A stretch of DNA of 64,000 nucleotides from Escherichia coli (GTDB taxonomy: Bacteria > Pseudomonadota > Gammaproteobacteria > Enterobacterales > Enterobacteriaceae), in assembly GCF_044324875.1 (NCBI RefSeq), contig NZ_CP172185.1; one strand, given 5' to 3'. Both the position numbers and the translations under genes were made by a program. Below, one piece after another: positions 36,854-60,002 of the stretch (positions are counted from its first letter, which is position 1; the number at the start of each line of letters is the position of its first letter). Under the pieces are notes generated by a model. It saw only the letters and a program-made list of their open reading frames with translations. It made no database searches and was not told the origin of the DNA.

Positions 36854-37507
36854 TTATCGCAGTTTGTTGTAATTTTCTGACCACTGCGCCATATCCAGAA
36901 CAGAACTATCAGCAGGAACATCCTGGAGATCGTGCGTTACCTGAACGACGGGGATCGCCAGGGCGCGAACTTCGCTAAATACCCACTGGCGAAAATTCTC
37001 GCGCAGAGCTACATCAAGACGGCTGAATGGCTCATCCAGTAGCAACGCTTTTGGCTGAGCGAGAAGAGCGCGAAGCAGAGCAACGCGCGCTCGCTGACCA
37101 CCGGACAGAGTAGCAGGATCATGATGGAACATACCGCCAAGCCCCGCACGCTCCAGCGCATCATTTACCGCATCGCGCCTTGCAATACCTTTGAGTGCCG
37201 CTGGCAGAGCCAGCAGTAAATTTTGCCCGACGCTGAACTGGTCAAATAACAGTGCATCCTGGAAAAGAATGCCAATCTGACGCTCTGCGGTGGGTAGCAT
37301 GTCAATCCGTTGCTCATTGAGCCATAGCTCACCTGTACAAGAAAACTGTCCGGCCAGCGCACCAATCATCCATGAAAACAGAGTGGATTTTCCACAGCCA
37401 GACGGCCCCATTAACGTGACAATGTCACATTTATCCACCGTAAAGTTAACGTTTGTCAGCAAGCGGCTTTCTGGTAAACGTAGCGAAACATTTTTCACGC
37501 AGAGCAT
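36854..37507 (-). CDS. ynjD: ABC transporter ATP-binding protein YnjD
   Basis: 217 aa from MLCVKNVSLRLP...; Walker A GPSGCGKST, signature LSGGQRARV; start ATG overlaps the ynjC stop by 1 nt. Confidence 0.88.
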   Translation of the reverse strand: MLCVKNVSLRLPESRLLTNVNFTVDKCDIVTLMGPSGCGKSTLFSWMIGALAGQFSCTGELWLNEQRIDMLPTAERQIGILFQDALLFDQFSVGQNLLLALPAALKGIARRDAVNDALERAGLGGMFHHDPATLSGGQRARVALLRALLAQPKALLLDEPFSRLDVALRENFRQWVFSEVRALAIPVVQVTHDLQDVPADSSVLDMAQWSENYNKLR

Positions 37508-46458: not shown

Positions 46459-47343
46459 TCAGAACAGGTGATCCCACAGAGTGACCAGCAGGTGGATAAT
46501 GCGGTCCCGGGTTTTGCGCAGAAGCTGTAACATCCAGGCCGGAAAACTGAAACGGGCAACGGCGTCGTCAAAACTTTTCCCGATGGTTTCACCAAAAGTC
46601 TGTTGTGCGTGTTTCTGGACCCGTTCAGAGCGGTTTTCCCCCCGGATATGTGAATAAACCGCGCTGGTTGCCTGTGGCGGCAGTGCGTGGATCATCAGTG
46701 ACACCAGTGCCGGAATATTCCAGCCGACAGGCGCGGCAACGGGGAGTACCGGAAATGATGAAGGGAACAGGGTTGCCACCCGGGCTGTCACCGTCGCCAG
46801 CGAGAGTTCCTGGTGACGGGACGGGCATTTTTCTGTGTCGTTCCATTCTTCAGCAGGAAATACGCGATCGGCATGGCTGAGAACAAACAGAAAACGCGAG
46901 GGATCTGCACCTTCATTCAGTAAAAACTGATGCATGGCGATGTCGGCAGCATACGCACGTTCATCAGCCCGCAGGATCCAGATAATCAGATCCAGTTCGG
47001 GCAGTAACTGACTGTAAAGTGCCCGGTATTCCTGATCATGCTGTGGTGTTTCGCCAGTGCCGGGCAGATCGACCAGCGTCATTCTTCGTTCACCGGGCTG
47101 AAAGGTAAGACGATGAGCCTGACGGGTGCAGCCGTTCAGCGGATGCGTGGCGCAGACACGGGACTGAAAAATGGCATTGCACAGGCTGCTTTTTCCGGCA
47201 CCGGATTTACCCATAATGCCAATCACGGGCTCGTAATGAATAACACTGTGGAGATGTTCAAGGATTTTCTGGCGAATTTCTTCAGGAAGAAACGTCAGAT
47301 ATGATTTCACTTGTGCGGAGAGGGAAGAATGGCTGAATGACAT
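46459..47343 (-). CDS. YeeP/YfjP/YkfA-family GTPase
   Basis: 294-aa ORF with P-loop GIMGKSGAGKSS and G3 motif DLPGTG; typical lead gene of CP4-type island cassettes. Confidence 0.85.
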   Translation of the reverse strand: MSFSHSSLSAQVKSYLTFLPEEIRQKILEHLHSVIHYEPVIGIMGKSGAGKSSLCNAIFQSRVCATHPLNGCTRQAHRLTFQPGERRMTLVDLPGTGETPQHDQEYRALYSQLLPELDLIIWILRADERAYAADIAMHQFLLNEGADPSRFLFVLSHADRVFPAEEWNDTEKCPSRHQELSLATVTARVATLFPSSFPVLPVAAPVGWNIPALVSLMIHALPPQATSAVYSHIRGENRSERVQKHAQQTFGETIGKSFDDAVARFSFPAWMLQLLRKTRDRIIHLLVTLWDHLF

Positions 47344-47448: not shown

Positions 47449-48399
47449 ATGGCATCACTGTCGATTAATACGCTACGCCGAATGAGCATTTGTAAAAGTC
47501 AGGCCTGGAAAGATACCCAGCGAATACTGAAGCGTAGTGGACTTGTGTACAGAGGGGAACGGTCAGAATCGTTTGATCCTGAGAAACATTTTAATCGTTA
47601 TACGGTGCGTTATCTGTACCTGCTTAACATAATTGCGCTTAAGATAAGGTCGGTTAGTAAATTTTCCTGTTGGATCGAGGTGGGACAATGCCATCGTATG
47701 ACTGGTAAACATTTATCTCTTAATGCCCCGCCTTTTATGCTGATTCCGCGTAGTATCCGGAGAAAAGTGGATGGATTCAGACAGTCAAAAGGTGAAGCAA
47801 CCCCAAAATCGGCTCAACCGTTCACGGGCAGTTTGTATGAGGTTTTGAGAAAGGAGAGCGATTCAGCTAAGCTGGACGCATGGATTGCTGAACTGCCTCT
47901 GAACTTGCAGGAGGAGGGAAAGGAAATCTCAGTCATGGGATTTAGTCCACGGGCTGTGGCCCGACCTGTTCTTCGGTCAGCATCCCCGACGTTTGAACTG
48001 TTTTATCAGGAGTATCAATCCCTAAGATTAAAATCTGTTTTTAAATTTGAACCAAGATTTGAACAACTTTTAACAAGACTGAGCTTTAGAAAACAATCAA
48101 TTCTCAGAAAACAACAATACAGGGTTAAATCGCAATTACTGGAGAGACTGGGGAATGTGTTGTTTTTCACGTCGCTTTATAACCAGGGATGTTTAGAGGA
48201 GTTTATAAATGCACTTGTGGAAAAGGAGGACATTTATCTGAAAATGTCCCCTGGGGAGGAAAAGGTGAAAGCACACCAGAAAATGGTTAACTACATTGAA
48301 GCGTTCTGCAACAAAATGACGGAAAAATACCTGATGCCCGCAGCAAGCAGACACTACAAAAAGAAGAAAATCGCCAGGAGCGAAAGTGGTGAAAGTTAA
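47449..48399 (+). CDS. Hypothetical protein (316 aa), low GC, unrecognised family
   Basis: Strong RBS GGGAGGAG 4 nt before ATG 47449; divergent from the GTPase gene; basic and coiled-coil-rich; no motif I can assign. Confidence 0.55.
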   Translation: MASLSINTLRRMSICKSQAWKDTQRILKRSGLVYRGERSESFDPEKHFNRYTVRYLYLLNIIALKIRSVSKFSCWIEVGQCHRMTGKHLSLNAPPFMLIPRSIRRKVDGFRQSKGEATPKSAQPFTGSLYEVLRKESDSAKLDAWIAELPLNLQEEGKEISVMGFSPRAVARPVLRSASPTFELFYQEYQSLRLKSVFKFEPRFEQLLTRLSFRKQSILRKQQYRVKSQLLERLGNVLFFTSLYNQGCLEEFINALVEKEDIYLKMSPGEEKVKAHQKMVNYIEAFCNKMTEKYLMPAASRHYKKKKIARSESGES

Positions 48400-49184
48400 T
48401 CCAGTCTACCGTACAGAATCAGTTGTTCCAGAATAGCCTGCTGTGTTGTTTTCCGCTCTCTGGTCAGTCTGTCCAGAGCGCTTTTTGCGGATGGCGATAT
48501 CTTTACGTTGATTTGTACCCGTTTATCTTTTTTTCCATCGATAAACTGTTTTCTGAATGCATTGTGCATCTTGTCGAAAAATCTTTCTTTTGCAGCGAAT
48601 CCTAGGTGAAATTCTTTTGGCGTCAGTAAACAGGGTGTGTCTGTGGGGAATAACATTTTTAGTAAAACTACAATGGCAATATATCTTTCGTTATCATTTA
48701 CAGGATTAAACCAGGAAAGATATGTGGGTGAGATACGTGCATCAATATATTCCCATGCCCATTTCAGTTGTTCGGTATTCTTTTTAAGCCATTTGGCTTC
48801 GTTTCTCTTTTCGAGTCCCAGCCAGTTTTGATGCATTATTGAGATAATCCGATCTGCTTCCCCATAAAGGATTAACGCATTAATCCATTTCCCTATAACA
48901 TTCAGTCGTGTTTCATGACTTGAAGGAATAATTGTCATGGGGTTATCCTTCATAACGATCACCCCCTTCAAGGCAGAGTTGAACTCAGATTCATTATTAA
49001 GTTTAAGTTTTTCGGGAACTGTATGAGACATAATTAACCAGAACCAGAATGCTGCAATTTCATTTTTTCTGATCCATTCAGGTATGTGATTATCTGCCAG
49101 ATTATTATCATTCAATAAATGCTCAGTTGTTTTATTTTTCCAGTCATATCTATTCACGTTATAACCGCCTTTATATTGTTTCAT
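48396..49184 (-). CDS. Hypothetical protein (about 262 aa), low GC, C-terminal ribbon-helix-helix-like segment
   Basis: ATG 49184 with RBS GAGG 8 nt upstream (the track ORF starts 29 codons earlier); stop overlaps the convergent gene stop by 4 nt; C-terminus KISPSAKSALDRLTRERKTTQQAILEQLI resembles RHH DNA-binding folds. Confidence 0.5.
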   Translation of the reverse strand: MKQYKGGYNVNRYDWKNKTTEHLLNDNNLADNHIPEWIRKNEIAAFWFWLIMSHTVPEKLKLNNESEFNSALKGVIVMKDNPMTIIPSSHETRLNVIGKWINALILYGEADRIISIMHQNWLGLEKRNEAKWLKKNTEQLKWAWEYIDARISPTYLSWFNPVNDNERYIAIVVLLKMLFPTDTPCLLTPKEFHLGFAAKERFFDKMHNAFRKQFIDGKKDKRVQINVKISPSAKSALDRLTRERKTTQQAILEQLILYGRLD

Positions 49185-49804
49185 CTGATTACGCCTCAAT
49201 CGTTTTCTTTTCTGGTGATTTTCACCATCACATGTCAGTTGTATATGCAAGGGGATCAATAAAAATATCACCCTGCAAGCACTTCAAAGCTGATTATGGG
49301 GATATTCTAGAACTATTCACAAAACTATTCCAGACATATCAAGAACTATTTCTTGACCTATTCATAATAAAATAAAACATGCTATCAACTACGGCTCATA
49401 TTCTCCTTGGGGGTGTCGTTGTACTGTTCGACTGTTCTTGTGGTCAGATTAACAATCTGAAGAGTAAAAGCGACAGTAATCTGTCTGTTATAGTGGCGAT
49501 AAAAACACTGAATGCGCATCCTGTATGTGAAATCCTGTCATGTAGAGCAGTAAGCAATGACAGACATGCATGTTATATGTGAAGGGGGCCGGGAGACGAC
49601 ATAATCAGTATGGCTGTCATTCTGGTTGTAAAACGCGATCACTTTCCGGGGGTAAAAGATGATATGGAGGTTGACAAACGGTTTGCTTCGGATTGTCTTT
49701 TCTGGGGCCTGAAATACGAGGGCAGAAAAATAATTCCAGAGTAAATCTGCTCTGTTTTTAGGACAGAAAACTCCATGCTGGCTGTAAAAGTGAAAAATTA
49801 ACAC

Positions 49805-50881
49805 CCAGTATGTATGGAAGTCTGAAGATGTTGAGAATGTCGGTATGATACTATATACACATATTTTACTAAGTATTTTTACTAAGCATTTCAGTAAGTG
49901 TTATACACGTATTTTCTACTAAGTGTTTTACCAGACATACACGTGTTTTCATAAACAGCCCTATAAGTGTTTTCATTAAGCATTGCTGTACACATTGCTT
50001 TGTCTGAAACACATCCAGTTTAGTAAATCTTTACGTTAGCTAAAATCAGTTTAAAGCTGCTGTAAAACCTTTCTGTTTAAGCAATCAATCTGCTATTCGA
50101 TTTTACTGATGTTGCGTTTAACCTTTTCTGAGATTTCGAGTTTCGACGTTAGCATGAGAAAAGTATCTTTACGCTAAATCAACCCGAACTTTCCTGAAGT
50201 AATCTGACGTTTTTTTCGATGTGCTTACGACGATTCTGTTAAACGACTTTCTGGATGTTTTGATAACAATCAGATTGAGGCATTAACGATTCCTGACGTT
50301 TTCTTTTCCGTGTAAGGTCATTCTTTTTGTCATGAGGTTTCTTCTTGCATTGCGAAAGTGTGATGAACGGTTTTGGTGTTTTTGATTCAGATAAGGTTTA
50401 CGTTATCGATGGTTAATCGTTTTTATGGTGCGTAGTGAAACGTAACTTTTTCAGGATGAGAAAATCGATTCTGATGTTGGTGATTTTTGTTCTTGTGGCG
50501 GGGTTTATCTGTAAACAGGTTTTAAACGTGTCATTCACATCCGTGATTGAGTTGTGTGATTAAGCTGTAGGTTTTGGGGTTGTTGTTGATTTGCATTACC
50601 AGGAAGCGTTCTGGTTGCGTTTCTGGTGTTTTGTTCGAATGTTCTGTGGATCCTTTTCCCTTCTGACTTTTCTCGTTGTCCATGTCGTTTTTAAATCCAT
50701 TCGCTGTTCTTGAGTGTTTTTACCCTGCGTGTAGAATTATCTTTTCGTTCCGGGATGGTTTGTTCCGTTTCAATCACTCTTAATCAGAGAGTTGTAGCAT
50801 TGCTCAATGCCGGATGCCGTAAAGTTTTACCGCGGTGATTAATGATGTGAAGTCAATCCAAATCAACGGAGATCTCTCATC
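49805..50881. other. ORF-free, T-rich (plus strand) 1.08-kb non-coding region with repeated short motifs, upstream of the first gpII-like gene
   Basis: No ORF of 60 aa or more in any frame; strong T over A and G over C skew on the plus strand; repeated TAAGTGTTTT-like and TTTTCG/GTTT units. Confidence 0.5.
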
Positions 50882-51613
50882 ATGAATCAACCAATACATA
50901 ATGCTTACTGGTTATCCCGTTTTGACAGCCTTCTCGACAGTGCCCTGGCGCAGCACCGTGCCGTCTCGTTAATCCGGGTGGATTTACGTTTCCCTGAGTA
51001 TATGCCTGTCACCATCATGGATCCCGATCCGGATTCAGCGGTGATTTCTCGTTTTTTTGCATCCCTGAAAGCCAAAATTCAGGCTTACCAGCGGAAAAAA
51101 AGATGTGCCAATCAGCGTGTGCATGCAACCAGCCTGCGTTATTTCTGGTGCCGGGAGTTCGGCAAGGAAAAAGGCAGGAAACATTATCACGTGATATTAC
51201 TGCTCAACAAAGATACCTGGTGCTCGCCAGGGGATTTCACCGTTCCTTCTTCGCTGGCGACACTGATCAAGCTGGCATGGTGTAGCGCTCTGCATCTTGA
51301 GCCCTGGCAGGGTAATGGACTGGTTCATTTTTCCAGGCGGACGCCTTTCCGTAAACCGGCATCATCTGATGCTCGCCCTTCTTCCGATGATACGCCTTTG
51401 TCGGGTGGATGTTCTGATACCAGGAAGGCTTCAGAAAAAAAGCCGGGTGAAGCCGCTGTTCTCTGGATCAAGCGTGGTGATGTGGAAGCGCTGCAGAAAG
51501 CCCGGAACAGAGCCAGTTATCTCGTGAAATATGAGACGAAGCAGCATGACGGTTCCGGGCAACGTAATTATGGTTGCAGTCGTGGGCCGGGGCGTCTGCT
51601 GGATGGCAGGTGA
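50882..51613 (+). CDS. Inovirus gpII-like (YagK/YfjJ-family) protein, putative HUH-type replication initiator
   Basis: 243-aa ORF with HYHVILLL (His-hydrophobic-His) motif; family typical of P4/CP4-like islands. Confidence 0.65.
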   Translation: MNQPIHNAYWLSRFDSLLDSALAQHRAVSLIRVDLRFPEYMPVTIMDPDPDSAVISRFFASLKAKIQAYQRKKRCANQRVHATSLRYFWCREFGKEKGRKHYHVILLLNKDTWCSPGDFTVPSSLATLIKLAWCSALHLEPWQGNGLVHFSRRTPFRKPASSDARPSSDDTPLSGGCSDTRKASEKKPGEAAVLWIKRGDVEALQKARNRASYLVKYETKQHDGSGQRNYGCSRGPGRLLDGR

Positions 51614-51939
51614 GCCCTGTAAAACGACATCCGGTGCCTGAGCTTATGCTACAGGACGTTGGCTGACGCCCTTAGCTCGTTTTCTGAAAAAGTCGTCCTG
51701 AAGTCATGCAACGGTATTTTTCTCTGCTTTCGCTCCTGGAAACACTCCGTCGGTAAAACCTTACTGTCCTGCTTAATGATGTGAACCGAAGTCAACGGAG
51801 ATCATTCATTCTGAACCTGCATCCGGTGTTCTGTCCCTTGTCGGTTACCTGATCTTCCCGTTCTGCCGCGGTTTTTCACTTATTCCATCAACCCCATACG
51901 CAAGCCATAACACGTCAGCGCATCCACGGGCAGGACGCG

Positions 51940-52542
51940 TTGTGGGCTGCGTATAACGGAACATATCTTATGAATGCTATCCCTTATTTCGACTATAGCA
52001 TGGCGCCCTTCTGGCCATCTTATCAGAACAAAATCATCGGCGTTCTCAACCGTGTGTTGCGCGAGCAGTCCTGCTCCCGAATACGGCGGATCCTGCTTCG
52101 TCTGCCGGGGGAACATGGCAACATCTTCAGCGACAGAAAAACCTGGTTCGGTATGGCCTTTATCGAAACCGTCAGTGCGCTGATGAATGCAACCCCCGGA
52201 CGCGACCTCTGCTGGCTCCTGACCCGTCATCCTGAAAAACCGGAATACCACGTGGTGCTGTGCGTCAGACAGGAATATTTCGACGGCCCTGAGCTGGACC
52301 GGTTGATTCTGGATGCCTGGAGCAACGTACTGGGCTTCGCGTCACCGGGTGAAGCAGCACCGTACCAGAAACAGATAACCCGGGATGTGGTGCTGGACAG
52401 TTGTTCACCGGACTGCGAAGAGAGACTCAAAGAGCTGATATGGGCGTTCAGTGATTTCGCCCGCGATCGTCGTGGTGTGCGCGATCCGGAAGCCCGTTAC
52501 CTCGCCGGTAATCCCTGGTATCCCGTAGCAGGCCAGCTCTGA
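51940..52542 (+). CDS. Inovirus gpII-like (YagK/YfjJ-family) paralog
   Basis: 200-aa ORF with EYHVVLCV motif and a similar upstream sequence motif to the 50882 gene. Confidence 0.6.
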   Translation: MWAAYNGTYLMNAIPYFDYSMAPFWPSYQNKIIGVLNRVLREQSCSRIRRILLRLPGEHGNIFSDRKTWFGMAFIETVSALMNATPGRDLCWLLTRHPEKPEYHVVLCVRQEYFDGPELDRLILDAWSNVLGFASPGEAAPYQKQITRDVVLDSCSPDCEERLKELIWAFSDFARDRRGVRDPEARYLAGNPWYPVAGQL

Positions 52543-52610
52543 AAGCTCAGCTCAGCAGATTCACCCGCATTTGCCCAACATTCATAAATCTCACAGAGGA
52601 CATTCTGACC

Positions 52611-52847
52611 ATGTTGACCTCAATGACAGGTCACGACAGCGTATTGCTGCGTGCCGACGATCCCCTGATCGACATGAACTACATCACCAGCTTCACTGGT
52701 ATGACCGACAAATGGTTTTACAAGCTGATCAGTGAAGGCCATTTCCCTAAACCCATCAAACTGGGGCGCAGCAGCCGCTGGTACAAAAGTGAAGTGGAGC
52801 AGTGGATGCAGCAACGAATCGAGGCATCACGAGGGGCAGCAGCATGA
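52611..52847 (+). CDS. alpA: AlpA-family prophage transcriptional regulator (P4-type)
   Basis: 78-aa ORF with MerR-like HTH (ITSFTGMTDKWFYKLISEGHFPKPIKLGRSSRWYKSEVEQWM). Confidence 0.8.
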   Translation: MLTSMTGHDSVLLRADDPLIDMNYITSFTGMTDKWFYKLISEGHFPKPIKLGRSSRWYKSEVEQWMQQRIEASRGAAA

Positions 52848-53596
52848 AACGTGTTGTAATGCCGGTACGCTGGCAATGTGCAAAATACCAGCGTTGGTAT
52901 TGTGGAAATCAGCCCTGTCCCTGGTGCTGGCGACCTGCTGCCCCCGTCTGTCATTCCTCGTTCTTCGCTGTAACAGGCATCGTACCGGTCTCGGCGTGCT
53001 TTCCTGCGTACCGACACCGGTTCAGCAACATTCAAGGGGATCAAATCGTGCAAATAACCGAAACCGTACTTTCAGAGCCGGTGGAAATCCGGCGTTTTAT
53101 TCAGCAGGCGGTGGATCACTGGCCGCGTCTGCTGGCCGTCCACTTCACACTCCATTCGGCAGAAGGAAACATCAACGGACAACAGATTCATGCATTCTGT
53201 ACTTCCTTTTACCGACAGGTGCACGAGCGTATTACTGAACGTAATCACACGGCCAGTCCAGCACCACCGGTGGTATTACGCTGGTTGCGGGAACAACATG
53301 GAGGAGCAACAATGCGATGCCTGTTGCTGCTCAGCCAGACGAGCATTTGCCATCCACGGGTCAGTGCCACGGTTGATGAAGAATGTTCGCAACGGGTGGA
53401 TTTATTGCAACAGACATGGCGGGTGATAAGTGCTGACGGACAATGCCGGGTGGAAAGGTGTTTTCAGGCTGCCCGGGGTGATACATCCGGCCAGTATATT
53501 GCGTTAAAAACAGTTGCATTGTCTCTGGGGTTACCGGTTGTGACCGGTATTACCCATCGCCCGGTACAGCGCTGTACATTGATTACAGCTCAGTGA
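52844..53596 (+). CDS. Hypothetical protein (250 aa), translationally coupled to alpA; possibly a third gpII-like paralog
   Basis: ATGA overlap with the alpA stop; contains AVHFTLHS in a context resembling the other two paralogs; Cys/Trp-rich N-terminus. Confidence 0.45.
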   Translation: MKRVVMPVRWQCAKYQRWYCGNQPCPWCWRPAAPVCHSSFFAVTGIVPVSACFPAYRHRFSNIQGDQIVQITETVLSEPVEIRRFIQQAVDHWPRLLAVHFTLHSAEGNINGQQIHAFCTSFYRQVHERITERNHTASPAPPVVLRWLREQHGGATMRCLLLLSQTSICHPRVSATVDEECSQRVDLLQQTWRVISADGQCRVERCFQAARGDTSGQYIALKTVALSLGLPVVTGITHRPVQRCTLITAQ

Positions 53597-53613
53597 ACAG
53601 CGCTGTTGTGCAG

Positions 53614-53916
53614 TCAACGAGGTTTTCTGTCTTTTCGTCGGTCATTCAGCATCATTAAACGGGTCTCTGCCTCTTTCTGTTCCTGTGGTGTCACTTCCCC
53701 GCACGGCTGACCGTTCAGGTTGTAACGGGCGCCACCTGCTATTAACGCACGGTAATAGCGCGGAGACTGCACATAAGACGCCACTGCTGCATGTAATGTA
53801 CCAGCGCCAAACGCCAGTTCTCGGATGGCGATATCCTGTATCAGGTCGTCAGGTATCCCCACTTTAAGTGGTTTTGTTTTTTTCCCGGTTGAATGACTCA
53901 GGCCAGAGTTCCACAA
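53614..53916 (-). CDS. Hypothetical small protein (100 aa); uncertain, possibly a remnant
   Basis: ORF convergent with the alpA module; an adjacent 64-aa ORF (53931-54125) lies on the same strand, so both may be fragments of one decayed gene. Confidence 0.25.
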   Translation of the reverse strand: MWNSGLSHSTGKKTKPLKVGIPDDLIQDIAIRELAFGAGTLHAAVASYVQSPRYYRALIAGGARYNLNGQPCGEVTPQEQKEAETRLMMLNDRRKDRKPR

Positions 53917-54510
53917 GACGAATAATGCGCTTACGGTTTTTGCTCTGGCGTTTTGTCATGTCGCCACGGTGTTTTATCAGCAGGTTTCTGTTTATCGTTC
54001 AACTGTGGTATCTGGTCACCGGCCTTCATTTTGTATGCTGTGTCCGTTTTATCCTGCAGCGGCGTTGCCGGTGATTTACTGAAAATACCCTGCGGTTTAC
54101 GGTTAATGGTCAGAGTTACCATCAATTTTGTTACCTCGCGCTGTCAATGGAAGTAGTACCTCATCCGATATCTGAAAATGTTTTCCGGTGGATGTTACAG
54201 CGAATTTCATGTAAGACATGTTGTTGTCGGTATTGTTCAGTACTGTGCGTTGTGAGCGTATTCGTTATCAGACAGAGGGGCAGGGAACAAACGTCAGAGG
54301 TTAAGGATATCCGGGAACAAATGGCGTAAACGGACATCTCAGTGCCTGAGAAACAGTACAGGTCAGGCCATCATGGCCTGCAAACAGAGCCCTGGCGACC
54401 CCGTGGCCGAAAACGAAACAATAACCCGCGCGCAGTGCGAGGAATCCGGATGTGAAGCAATCAGCAGGTAATATTAATGGCAGGACCAGCAGGTTCTTTA
54501 AACAAACGAA

Positions 54511-55273
54511 GGTGGTGACTCCAATTAGTAGAACATATATTTTTCGATAAAGGCACCGATGACTTTTTCATGAAGTTCTACAGAGCGCGAGAAACAGATA
54601 GTTCTGCGGGCCAGACGTTTGATTCGGGTTCTCAGAGGTAGATGTTGCGCTCAATGCGCTGAGTAAAAATCTTACCAGTCAGATGCTTCTCCTTCGGTAA
54701 CTCTCTGGTGTAACTACCCCATTCGTCAGTGGTCAACATACCGATGGTAAAAGGGCAAGCAGCGCCAGCAATTCACGACAGGTTTAATCAGTCCGTAGGC
54801 CAAAAGTGTAGGCCAGAACGCCACCAGTTTTCGTGTTGTACGTGTACCAGAGCCAGTGCTGTCGCGCTTTACTGCCGACAAAACTCCATTGCTCATCAAG
54901 TTCGCAGATGAGTGCCATATCAGCATGAGCGACCGGGTATGACGTTATTCTTCGTGGCGAGAGTTTTTTAAAGTCCGGATGACAGTATTAATGCCGATTT
55001 TCAGCGTACGGGCAGTATCGCGAACTCCGGCACCGTTGAAAGCCATTTCAGTGATTTGCTCTTTAACTCCCGGTTTACGGGCCTCGTAACGGTAAGTGAG
55101 CTGAAGCACTCGATGACAGTCACGGCAGCGAAATCGATCATGTCCTTTGGGTTCTTCCCGTGACGGTAAACCTGAACGGACTGGCAACAGGAGCAATGAA
55201 GGTTAACTGTGACCATGAAAGAACCTTAAAAGTGGCTATTATACTCCTAATTCAACTAATTGGAGTCATTACC
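54511..55273 (-). mobile_element. IS1-family insertion sequence (divergent isoform), apparently defective
   Basis: 763 bp; terminal repeats GGTGGTGACTCCAATTAGTAG (left) and AATTGGAGTCATTACC (right); InsA-like and InsB-like coding on the minus strand, each split across two frames. Confidence 0.8.
54945..55216 (-). pseudogene. insA: insA-like gene with internal frameshift
   Basis: Zn-finger N-terminus (MVTVNLHCSCCQSVQVYRHGKNPK) is in one frame and the HTH C-terminus (GHDRFRCRDCHRVLQLTY...AFNGAGVRDTARTLKIGINTVIRTLKNS) in another; downstream InsB-like sequence (...RTRIKRLARRTICFSRSVELHEKVIGAFIEKYMFY) is also split. Confidence 0.6.
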
Positions 55274-55281
55274 GTATTCAT

Positions 55282-55452
55282 AATGGATTAGGTTCAGCAG
55301 TTGCTGAAGTGCTTGTAGAAACTTGTCCTGTGCCCATGCGTCGGGTGGGGGTTAAAGAGCGGTATGGCCAGGTTGAAACTCAGGACTTTTTACAGAGAGA
55401 GTACGGGTTAACCGCGCAAGCTATTGTGGCGGCAGCCAGAGAGCTATTGTAA
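55282..55452 (+). pseudogene. Transketolase C-terminal-domain remnant, truncated by the IS1 insertion
   Basis: Frame encodes ...GLGSAVAEVLVETCPVPMRRVGVKERYGQVETQDFLQREYGLTAQAIVAAARELL-stop, a typical transketolase C-terminal tail, beginning immediately after the IS1 right end with no upstream gene body. Confidence 0.55.
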
Positions 55453-55653
55453 TTCATGGAGTTTGTTTACCATTCTGTTTTTCTTAAAAGTGAGTGTCTG
55501 TGCGGTCACTAAACTCGGTAATAAAGCAGTTCATTGCAGGATAAGAAGCGTTTGGTTGTGTCGTTTTACCGTAAGAACCGACCGCCGTATGTATCCATTA
55601 AGCCAGTATTGGTAACGTAGGTGCCCACCTTTTCAAACTGGTGGGCGCCTGTT

Positions 55654-55826
55654 ATGGAGCAAAAACATTATCCGCAGAACCCCGCAGATCATTTTCAAAT
55701 GAGTTAAACTTCAAATGGTTAAACTGGTTTTGCAACCAGGAGCCTCTGTTGCCCGTATTGCCCGGGAACACGATATCAATGATAACCTCCTGTTCAAATG
55801 GCTCAGACTCTGGCAGAACGTAAGGT
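55654..55826 (+). pseudogene. Transposase helper (HTH OrfA-type) remnant of an unidentified IS
   Basis: Short frames encoding MEQKHYPQNPADHFQMS-stop and ...LQPGASVARIAREHDINDNLLFKWLRLWQ, resembling IS OrfA HTH segments; interrupted by stops. Confidence 0.3.
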
Positions 55827-55904
55827 AAAGGGAGATGAAAAAGGCAATAGCAGAACTGAGTGACAGTGAAACCATTCTGGCGTACAGGGTTGGATGGTGA
55901 AACT

Positions 55905-58788: not shown

Positions 58789-59115
58789 ATGACTAAAAAT
58801 ACTCGTTTTTCCCCCGAAGTCCGTCAGAGGGCGATTCGTATGGTTCTGGAAAGTCAGGGCGAATATGACTCACAGTGGGCGGCAATTTGTTCCATTGCCC
58901 CAAAGATTGGCTGTACACCGGAGACTCTGCGTGTCTGGGTACGCCAGCATGAGCGGGATACCGGAGGCGGTGATGGCGGGCTCACCACCGCTGAACGTCA
59001 GCGTCTGAAAGAGCTGGAACGTGAAAATCGTGAACTGCGCCGCAGTAACGATATCCTTCGCCAGGCTTCCGCTTATTTTGCGAAGGCGGAGTTCGACCGC
59101 CTCTGGAAAAAGTGA
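58789..59115 (+). CDS. IS629 transposase OrfA
   Basis: 108-aa [63 protein letters not shown]... matching IS629 OrfA. Confidence 0.9.
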
Positions 59116-60002
59116 TGCCACTGCTGGATAAGCTGCGTAAGCTGTACGGGGTCGGACCGGTATGCAGTGAACTACATATTGCCCCGTCAACGTATTACCA
59201 CTGTCAGCAACAGCGACATCATCCTGATAAACGCAGTGCCCGTGCGCAGCGCGATGACTGGCTGAAGAAAGAGATACTGCGCGTATACGATGGGAATCAT
59301 CAGGTATACGGTGTGCGTAAAGTCTGGCGTCAGTTGTTACGGGAAGGAATCAGGGTAGCCAGATGTACAGTGGCGCGCCTCATGGCGGTTATGGGACTTG
59401 CCGGTGTTCTCCGGGGTAAAAAGGTCCGCACTACCGTCAGCCGGAAAGCCGTTGCCGCAGGCGACCGCGTAAACCGTCAGTTTGTGGCAGAACGTCCTGA
59501 CCAGTTGTGGGTGGCTGATTTTACTTACGTCAGCACATGGCAGGGGGTCGTCTATGTGGCGTTCATCATTGATGTGTTTGCCGGATACATCGTGGGGTGG
59601 CGGGTCTCATCGTCTATGGAAACGACATTCGTGCTGGATGCTCTGGAGCAGGCGTTATGGGCCCGTCGACCGTCCGGCACAGTCCATCACAGTGATAAAG
59701 GTTCTCAGTATGTATCGCTGGCCTACACACAGCGGCTTAAGGAAGCCGGATTACTGGCATCAACAGGAAGTACTGGTGACTCGTATGACAACGCGATGGC
59801 GGAGAGCATCAATGGCCTTTACAAAGCGGAGGTAATACACCGTAAGAGCTGGAAAAACCGGACAGAAGTGGAGCTGGCCACACTCACGTGGGTGGACTGG
59901 TATAACAATCGACGATTGCTGGAAAGGCTGGGCCATATCCCACCGGCAGAAGCAGAAAAAGCTTATTATGCTTCCATCGGAAACGATGATCTGGCAGCCT
60001 GA
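59112..60002 (+). CDS. IS629 transposase OrfB (DDE integrase core)
   Basis: 296-aa ORF overlapping orfA by 4 nt; motifs [16 protein letters not shown] and [15 protein letters not shown]. Confidence 0.9.

Follow-up and report, generated by a model that had tools for sequence, protein, structure and literature searches.

Genomic context of the locus

The window, that is, the whole 64-kb stretch of DNA that was analysed, carries an E. coli genomic island inserted next to ynjB. Within the region 1.8 kb is 100% identical to many avian and human isolates, and 14 kb is 99.5% identical to strain SCU-115. Strain ATCC 11775, a 99.2% match, is another carrier of the locus. Most E. coli genomes have the backbone of the island (GTPase, antirestriction, RadC, CbtA/CbeA, yfjJ, alpA): part of the 14-kb query is matched by 4818 of 5426. 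The putative regulator module described here occurs in approximately 10% of these genomes (549/5426). The genes around it are as follows.

46459-47343, - strand: GTPase family gene (Era-like, MMR_HSR1-type)
47449..48399, + strand: convergent partner gene (hypothetical protein of 316 aa), with a 4-bp overlap between its 3' end and the 262-aa gene
48396..49184, - strand: gene of the 262-aa protein, WP_000816188.1 (RefSeq start; GAGG precedes the ATG)
48396..48542, - strand: coding region of the ribbon-helix-helix (RHH) segment, aa 215-262 KDKRVQINVKISPSAKSALDRLTRERKTTQQAILEQLILYGRLD
50882-51613, + strand: 'inovirus Gp2 / YagK_YfjJ_C' gene (yfjJ-like Rep-family, PF23343)
between the yfjJ-like and AlpA-family genes: gene for a hypothetical protein of 190-200 aa
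52611-52847, + strand: AlpA-family gene

The 1.7 kb upstream of the 262-aa gene is without annotated genes. The 316-aa partner accompanies the 262-aa gene in E. coli and at most of the distant loci. Its 68 homologue clusters are all described as hypothetical, nearly all from E. coli/Enterobacteriaceae, and it has no match in Pfam, NCBIfam or PADLOC. PADLOC and NCBIfam also returned nothing useful for the 262-aa protein, and no description of this protein or of the repeats upstream of its gene was found in the literature.

A phased array of direct repeats

An earlier note on this DNA had reported four direct repeats upstream of the 262-aa gene. All four were recovered in place, all on the + strand. 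They lie 126-181 bp upstream of the ATG (49184, - strand), and their starts are spaced 12, 21 and 12 bp. Two weaker copies of the core occupy the apparent gaps and read GAATATCC and GATATGTC on the - strand.

49310-49320, + strand: repeat 1, GAACTATTCAC
49322-49331, + strand: repeat 2, AAACTATTCC
49343-49352, + strand: repeat 3, GAACTATTTC
49355-49364, + strand: repeat 4, GACCTATTCA
49300-49307, + strand: weak core GGATATTC
49311-49318 and again 49323-49330, + strand: strong core AACTATTC
49333-49340, + strand: weak core GACATATC
49344-49351, + strand: strong core AACTATTT
49356-49363, + strand: strong core ACCTATTC
49300..49364, - strand: the array, 5-6 direct units (4 strong and 2 weak) with a period of approximately 11 bp
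49374..49388, - strand: conserved 15-mer TTGATAGCATGTTTT (AAAACATGCTATCAA on the + strand), approximately 10 bp from the first unit

In the sense of the gene (- strand) the unit is GAATAG(T/A)T(C)nn, which corresponds to GAATAGTT plus three variable bases. The full chain in the window consists of 5-6 units with spacings of 12, 10, 11, 12 and 10 bp.

Such clustering greatly exceeds what chance would give. With up to one mismatch GAACTATTC has 13 matches on both strands of the 64 kb, where chance predicts a total of 12.3, and four of the 13 fall within 54 bp on one strand to form the sole cluster in the window. Three or more matches within 60 bp were seen in none of 600 simulated 64-kb sequences (Markov-1; two background compositions), and a Poisson estimate gives approximately 2e-6 such clusters per 64-kb window. 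A chain of 5 units was likewise absent from all 200 shuffles of the 450-bp upstream region.

The array across E. coli alleles

Of 5426 E. coli genomes, 549 have a relative of the 371-bp region, and the identities fall into bands near 98-100%, near 81% and below. Representatives of four allele classes of the 262-aa gene were compared.

Window type: L001, L002, L020
70%-identical protein: L003-L005; 4 units in L003 and L004, spaced exactly 11 bp; 3 units at 11-bp spacing in L005, which has a clean 11-bp deletion relative to L003
~50%-identical protein: L006, L007; 2 units at 11-bp spacing, with two further weak units beyond
45%-identical protein: L017, L018; 3 units in L017, spaced 10 and 11 bp

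All four classes keep 2-4 units in unchanged orientation beside the common 15-mer. The 15-mer is found in the window, L003-L007, L017 and L020, and in L017 it is kept despite flanks that are 36-47% identical. The geometry of the array is constant relative to this 15-mer, which lies on its far side, and not relative to the start codon; the distance from array to ATG varies among the alleles from 117 to 190 bp. The 200 bp around the array in L006 and L017 are only 36-51% identical to the window. By sequence comparison, the GAATAGTT units persist inside otherwise nearly unalignable sequence. Two units with up to one mismatch would be expected 10-12 bp apart in a given 80 bp with a chance of approximately 1e-4.

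The divergence has sharp boundaries. A sliding profile of the window against L006 and L017 gives 37-63% identity over 48560-49375, which covers the N-terminal ~210 codons and the leader with the array. On one side of this segment the RHH-coding 3' end is 91-95% identical at the DNA level, and on the other side L006 is 96-100% identical to the window from 49459 onward. The boundaries are those of a mosaic, in which 48560-49375 is hypervariable and identity is 85-100% in the RHH-coding 3' end, the 3' part of the partner gene and the GTPase gene. The pattern suggests that cassette-like recombination takes place or that the N-terminal domain is under diversifying selection.

Four control islands (L021, L142-L144) share the backbone (GTPase, yfjJ-like, AlpA-like and WYL genes) but have a single gene of 376-407 aa in place of the two-gene pair. 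Both the array and the 15-mer are missing from all four, which ties the array to the two-gene module. The presence of AlpA, the yfjJ-like protein, the GTPase and the WYL regulator in these controls argues against each of them as the binder. The 316-aa partner accompanies the array equally well in E. coli, so co-occurrence alone cannot single out the RHH protein.

A unit profile was built from 18 units at 5 loci. Its information content is 1.2-2.0 bits at positions 1-6 and 8, 0.6-0.7 bits at positions 7 and 9, and only 0.2 bits at positions 10-11. A conserved core of 8-9 bp with free positions 10-11 is the signature of a protein-binding site rather than of a recent tandem duplication. Slippage during replication, or tandem duplication, could still have produced the repeats in an AT-rich leader without giving them a function. 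Indeed, the unit number ranges from 2 to 6 across alleles, and the clean deletion that separates L005 from L003 indicates that slippage does happen at the array. We nevertheless consider slippage as the whole explanation very unlikely because conservation holds in the core but not at positions 10-11, the array survives in alleles with unalignable flanks, its placement beside the 15-mer is fixed and it is missing from the control islands.

The repeats might also be coding or part of an RNA. An 82-aa ORF with a TTG start does span them (+ strand, 49127..49375, ...ELFTKLFQTYQELFLDLFIIK). However, this ORF runs across the start of the annotated gene on the other strand, is unannotated in all genomes inspected and is broken by 11-bp indels between alleles, and on the RNA side there is no Rfam match (49100-51000, E up to 1). 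Either function is extremely unlikely.

The 262-aa protein

The earlier note had also read the end of the adjacent gene as a putative RHH segment, and Pfam RHH matches, matches of family members and an extended segment followed by two helices in the AlphaFold2 (AF2) model bear this out. The last 54 aa match RHH_1 (E 0.0047) and RepB-RCR_reg (E 0.0095; aa 215-257) in Pfam, both sub-threshold by the Pfam cut-off. Among 42 aligned family members RepB-RCR_reg is matched by nine (best E 7e-6) and RHH_1 by five (best E 6e-5); RHH_10 and RHH_5 are also matched, and 14 of the 42 have significant RHH-family matches. The AF2 model from the 42-sequence alignment (pLDDT 80, pTM 0.75) ends in an extended segment (217-230) and two helices (231-244 and 248-258). 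A model from 8 sequences was poor (pLDDT 60). Together the profile matches and the predicted structure make the C-terminal RHH well supported.

The protein consists of a variable N-terminal region (approximately aa 1-135), a putative MatP-like helical bundle (approximately aa 139-216) and the C-terminal RHH. The bundle is itself variable between alleles up to approximately aa 210. Conservation is highest in the RHH segment, which is near-identical in alleles that are 45-70% identical overall; at the DNA level this segment is 91-95% identical between alleles and the remainder of the gene 37-63%. Its beta-strand, RVQINVKIS, hardly changes among the E. coli alleles. A near-invariant RHH fits the invariant core of the motif. 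The protein stops 4 residues past the second RHH helix and is without a C-terminal coiled coil of the MatP type.

The likeness to MatP emerged from profile comparisons. The query alone had no match in the PDB. The family profile found MatP (4d8j) as its best match, with an E value of 0.002 over 117 positions that run from a WxWxY motif through the helical region to the RHH, and CopG (2cpg, 1b01) ranked lower. An hhalign comparison with E. coli MatP gave 78% probability; the MatP sequence used agrees with that in the profile alignment. MatP also recurs among weak structural matches. A MatP-like bundle-plus-RHH module is likely but not proven from these alignments.

A word-indexed search for homologues returned nine clusters, all from E. 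coli. An exhaustive profile search extended the family to 70 cluster representatives, many of them full-length at 17-32% identity. No family homologues were found in the phage collection. The plasmid collection yielded only an E. coli record at 70% identity, a second record with a short fragment, and two large Klebsiella entries labelled as plasmids.

Candidate promoters and the leader

Read toward the 262-aa gene, the 15-mer contains TGaTAGCAT, in which the critical A (position 2) and T (position 6) are present. No -35 accompanies it. Judged from these letters, the 15-mer may be an extended -10 directed at the 262-aa gene, or a further binding site, as it contains GATAG. If it is a promoter, the transcript would start near 49372 and the array would lie at about +9 to +72. 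Such a position would suit repression of the protein's own gene through a variable leader of approximately 190 nt.

The scan for promoters returned a single sigma-70-like match over the repeats, TTGTGA-18-CATAAT (49322..49293, - strand), which overlaps units 4-6. It is not conserved in L003-L005 (the 81%-identical allele). A -35-like hexamer, TTGCAT (49245..49250, - strand), was picked out by eye as a candidate. Every allele class has TTGCAT or TTGCAC; three of the four have it 56-60 nt before the ATG, and in L017, whose annotated start appears shifted, it is farther upstream. As no acceptable -10 follows, this hexamer was set aside. TTGATA as a -35 has no -10 in L006 or L017, and TGcTATCAA, read rightwards as a -10, is without the -7 T. 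The scan and manual reading thus yielded no convincing promoter in either direction.

The leader contains a 13-bp palindrome, GGTGAAAATCACC (49214-49226), which is 30-42 bp upstream of the start codon. It has one change in L003-L005 and is missing from L006 and L017. Beyond it GGTGA recurs at 49272..49268 (- strand).

These features bear on the possibility that a different protein, such as the 316-aa partner, a host nucleoid protein or another island regulator, binds the array and that the RHH protein acts elsewhere. All E. coli alleles combine the partner with the array, the geometry of a promoter for autoregulation is not clear-cut, and the palindrome GGTGAAAATCACC is nearer the start codon and more like a MatP site in form. 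On the other hand, the partner has no recognisable DNA-binding domain and varies between alleles (50-93%) while the motif is constant. The AlpA, WYL and yfjJ-like proteins are also encoded in the control islands that are without the array, and the two alleles without the palindrome have an identical RHH. We regard a different binder as unlikely, and prefer the RHH protein as the candidate ligand.

The conserved non-coding block and neighbouring sequences

The array lies at the left edge of a non-coding block of approximately 335 bp (49376..49709) that is 96-100% identical between alleles. This block occurs only with the RHH gene family (539 records). The sequence to the right of approximately 49709 is far more widely shared, and a 1.8-kb query matches 1749 records. 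RNA folding of 49390-49762 was no more stable than that of shuffles on either strand (z -1.0 and -0.2). The only Rfam match in the window is an IS3-family transposase frameshift element, an ALIL pseudoknot at 59070-59186 (116 bits).

A 44-aa ORF at 49610-49744 is annotated in some genomes as the hypothetical protein WP_000268384.1. It ends in a hairpin (49737-49760) with T-runs on both strands, which resembles a bidirectional terminator. In L004 this ORF has a 2-nt deletion and, approximately 50 nt away, a 2-nt insertion, a pattern that speaks against conserved coding.

Another repeat cluster, unrelated to the array, occupies 49850-49990 in widely shared backbone sequence, approximately 900 bp upstream of the yfjJ-like gene. 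It consists of TAAGYRTTTY units (49870, 49883, 49895, 49920, 49964, 49977) and ACACRTRTTTT units (49856, 49905, 49939). L003 and L007 have an extra 44-bp insertion that bears copies. This cluster may be a binding array for a backbone protein.

Distant homologues

The order of genes at the distant loci is yfjJ-like (-), alpA (-), an intergenic region, the RHH-family gene (+), the partner (-), the GTPase (+) and WYL (+). In Klebsiella a longer RHH-family member is followed directly by the GTPase, and the partner gene is missing. In L145 (K. pneumoniae) and L146 (K. aerogenes) the RHH-family gene lies between a divergent alpA and the GTPase; its product is 365 aa in L146 and is split in two in L145. 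Comparison of these loci shows the predicted RHH family to be a backbone component across genera. The conserved order places the RHH gene as the recurrent head of a putative transcription unit that diverges from the alpA/yfjJ side.

The array is not so widely distributed. In L010, whose homologue is 25% identical, the copies ACTATTTT, ACTATTTT and ACTAGTTA occur at 11-bp spacing approximately 100 bp upstream of the start, immediately upstream of an extended -10, TGTATAAT. The motif has the opposite orientation relative to the gene from that in E. coli. This reversal would be tolerable if the site is pseudo-symmetric, as AACTAGTT is a perfect palindrome and the E. coli unit matches it at 6 of 8 positions in either orientation. 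A de novo search for phased repeats found only 3-unit chains (P 0.05-0.13) in L009, L010, L011 and L019, and none upstream of L008, L013, L015 and L016. Nor did L145 and L146 show anything systematic; by eye, CTATT words occur there at about chance level. A clear array is missing in most distant homologues (L008, L009, L013, L015, L016, L145, L146), and the putative link of motif and protein is established only for the E. coli clade and L010. Contigs were also scanned for GAATAGN5GAATAGN5GAATAG. The scan matched at least 120 unrelated loci (Collinsella, MAGs and others); hmmsearch of six-frame ORFs found no family member among the matches listed, and the scan is uninformative for the family.

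Proposed role of the array

The earlier note had described the repeats as typical operator or iteron sites. The first part of this description is supported in that the array behaves like a protein-binding site: its core is conserved, it is kept in four alleles and it is absent without the gene. The second part is not supported. Iteron origins have iterons of 17-22 bp, an adjacent Rep initiator, a DnaA box and an AT-rich unwinding element. At this locus the unit length is 11 bp, 48224-55668 contains no DnaA box (up to one mismatch), and the adjacent protein is predicted to be an RHH protein and not a winged-helix Rep, so an iteron-type origin is unlikely.

A broader structural role deserves separate consideration. 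The RHH protein could bind the array chiefly as a centromere-like or pairing site, in the manner of parC or matS, or at an origin of the excised island. The 11-bp direct repeats have the unit length of parC, the protein resembles MatP, which is a site-specific organiser of DNA, and the unit number differs among alleles as it does in centromeres. An AT-rich stretch (49365-49378) and the yfjJ-like Rep-family gene (PF23343) are also nearby, although the stretch beside the array is only 14 bp. No ParM-, ParA- or TubZ-type partner was found, however, as the neighbours are an Era-like GTPase and proteins of no assigned function. The MatP-type coiled coil is lacking, no matS-like site (up to two mismatches) occurs in 47459-55859, the units are half the typical iteron length and there is a single array in the 64 kb. 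For these reasons a chiefly structural role is quite unlikely.

As to matS elsewhere, the only perfect copy in the window, GTGACAATGTCAC (37416-37428), is in the chromosomal part (ynjD region), and a copy with one mismatch lies at 24823-24835. Words like matS and the DnaA box are somewhat over-represented in the window as a whole.

The reading that we favour, and which is probable if far from certain, is that the array is a multi-site operator, bound by RHH dimers, one per unit, along one helix face in the divergent control region. We infer binding, cooperativity, the position of the promoter and the sign of regulation as follows. The 262-aa protein would dimerise through its C-terminal RHH, as expected of the fold class. 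Each dimer would put a two-stranded beta-ribbon (RVQINVKIS) into the major groove of one GAATAG(T/A)T unit, and the MatP-like helical bundle may contribute flanking contacts. Because the units recur every ~11 bp, 3-6 dimers could align on one face of the helix and bind cooperatively, as ParR does on the 11-bp iterons of parC and as Arc, Mnt, CopG and MetJ do on their tandem sites. The RHH gene and the yfjJ/alpA side of the island are separated by a divergent control region, which the complex would occupy, beginning approximately 10 bp downstream of the extended -10-like TGaTAGCAT that points at the RHH gene. The most likely output would be negative autoregulation, with RNA polymerase blocked at or just past the start site. 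An influence on rightward transcription is also possible. Autoregulation by the RHH protein, which the earlier note had thought plausible, is in our assessment plausible but unproven.

A more far-reaching version of the operator reading makes the 262-aa protein the master repressor of this E. coli/Klebsiella island family, with the hypervariable N-terminal ~210 aa as a diversifying sensor. The invariant RHH would hold the invariant operator, and the DNA would be released when the sensor met an inducer, for example a protein of a phage or plasmid. Such a switch would follow the logic of SaPI Stl, built on a MatP-like scaffold. It is suggested by the position of the gene at the head of an operon that diverges from the alpA/yfjJ excision-replication genes, and by the sharp mosaic boundaries. 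We think this extension unlikely.

RHH regulators with phased tandem sites are already a well-known kind. What is new is a family without a Pfam or NCBIfam model whose architecture is probably MatP-like, with a C-terminal RHH, and a mosaic of an invariant DNA-binding end and operator versus a hypervariable remainder. The locus provides a candidate operator for experiments (the GAATAG(T/A)T unit with its 11-bp period), a predicted DNA-binding protein from an unannotated family with approximately 70 cluster representatives, and a sharply bounded hypervariable domain. If the homology is true, the MatP-type bundle-plus-RHH module extends beyond chromosome organisation.

Comparison with known systems

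MatP of the MatP-matS system (4d8j, 3vea, 7nyw) is the best PDB match of the family profile, over a stretch that takes in the WxWxY-containing helical bundle and the RHH. MatP binds a single 13-bp palindrome, GTGACRNYGTCAC, and bridges its sites via a C-terminal coiled coil. The 262-aa protein is not MatP itself because it has no such coiled coil, has an extra N-terminal region of approximately 135 aa and adjoins direct repeats unrelated to GTGACRNYGTCAC.

ParR-parC of plasmid R1, a type II partition system, resembles the locus in its runs of 11-bp direct repeats beside the gene of an RHH protein. ParR is small and its RHH is N-terminal. The RHH of the island protein is at the C-terminus of 262 aa, and no sequence similarity between the two was detected. 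The parC site has two sets of five repeats that flank the promoter, whereas the island array has 2-6 units on one side of the 15-mer. In addition, parC works with the actin-like ATPase ParM; the island locus has no ParM and in this respect departs from ParMRC systems. Approximately one RHH ParR dimer binds per 11-bp direct repeat of R1 parC, cooperatively and on one helix face, and the parC iterons double as the operator for parMR autoregulation (PMC2241845).

The third comparison is with the small RHH repressors, namely Arc and Mnt of P22, CopG of pMV158, MetJ, omega and IncFII CopB/RepB-RCR_reg, which share the RHH fold with the 262-aa protein. The operators of Arc, Mnt, CopG, MetJ, omega (pSM19035) and IncFII CopB consist of short repeated sites approximately one helical turn apart. 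The small repressors are 45-90 aa with little beyond the RHH. In the 262-aa protein the RHH makes up only the last fifth, at the C-terminus, and the N-terminal part differs greatly from allele to allele. The array itself has the layout of an RHH tandem operator, with short sites approximately one helical turn apart beside the gene of the putative regulator.
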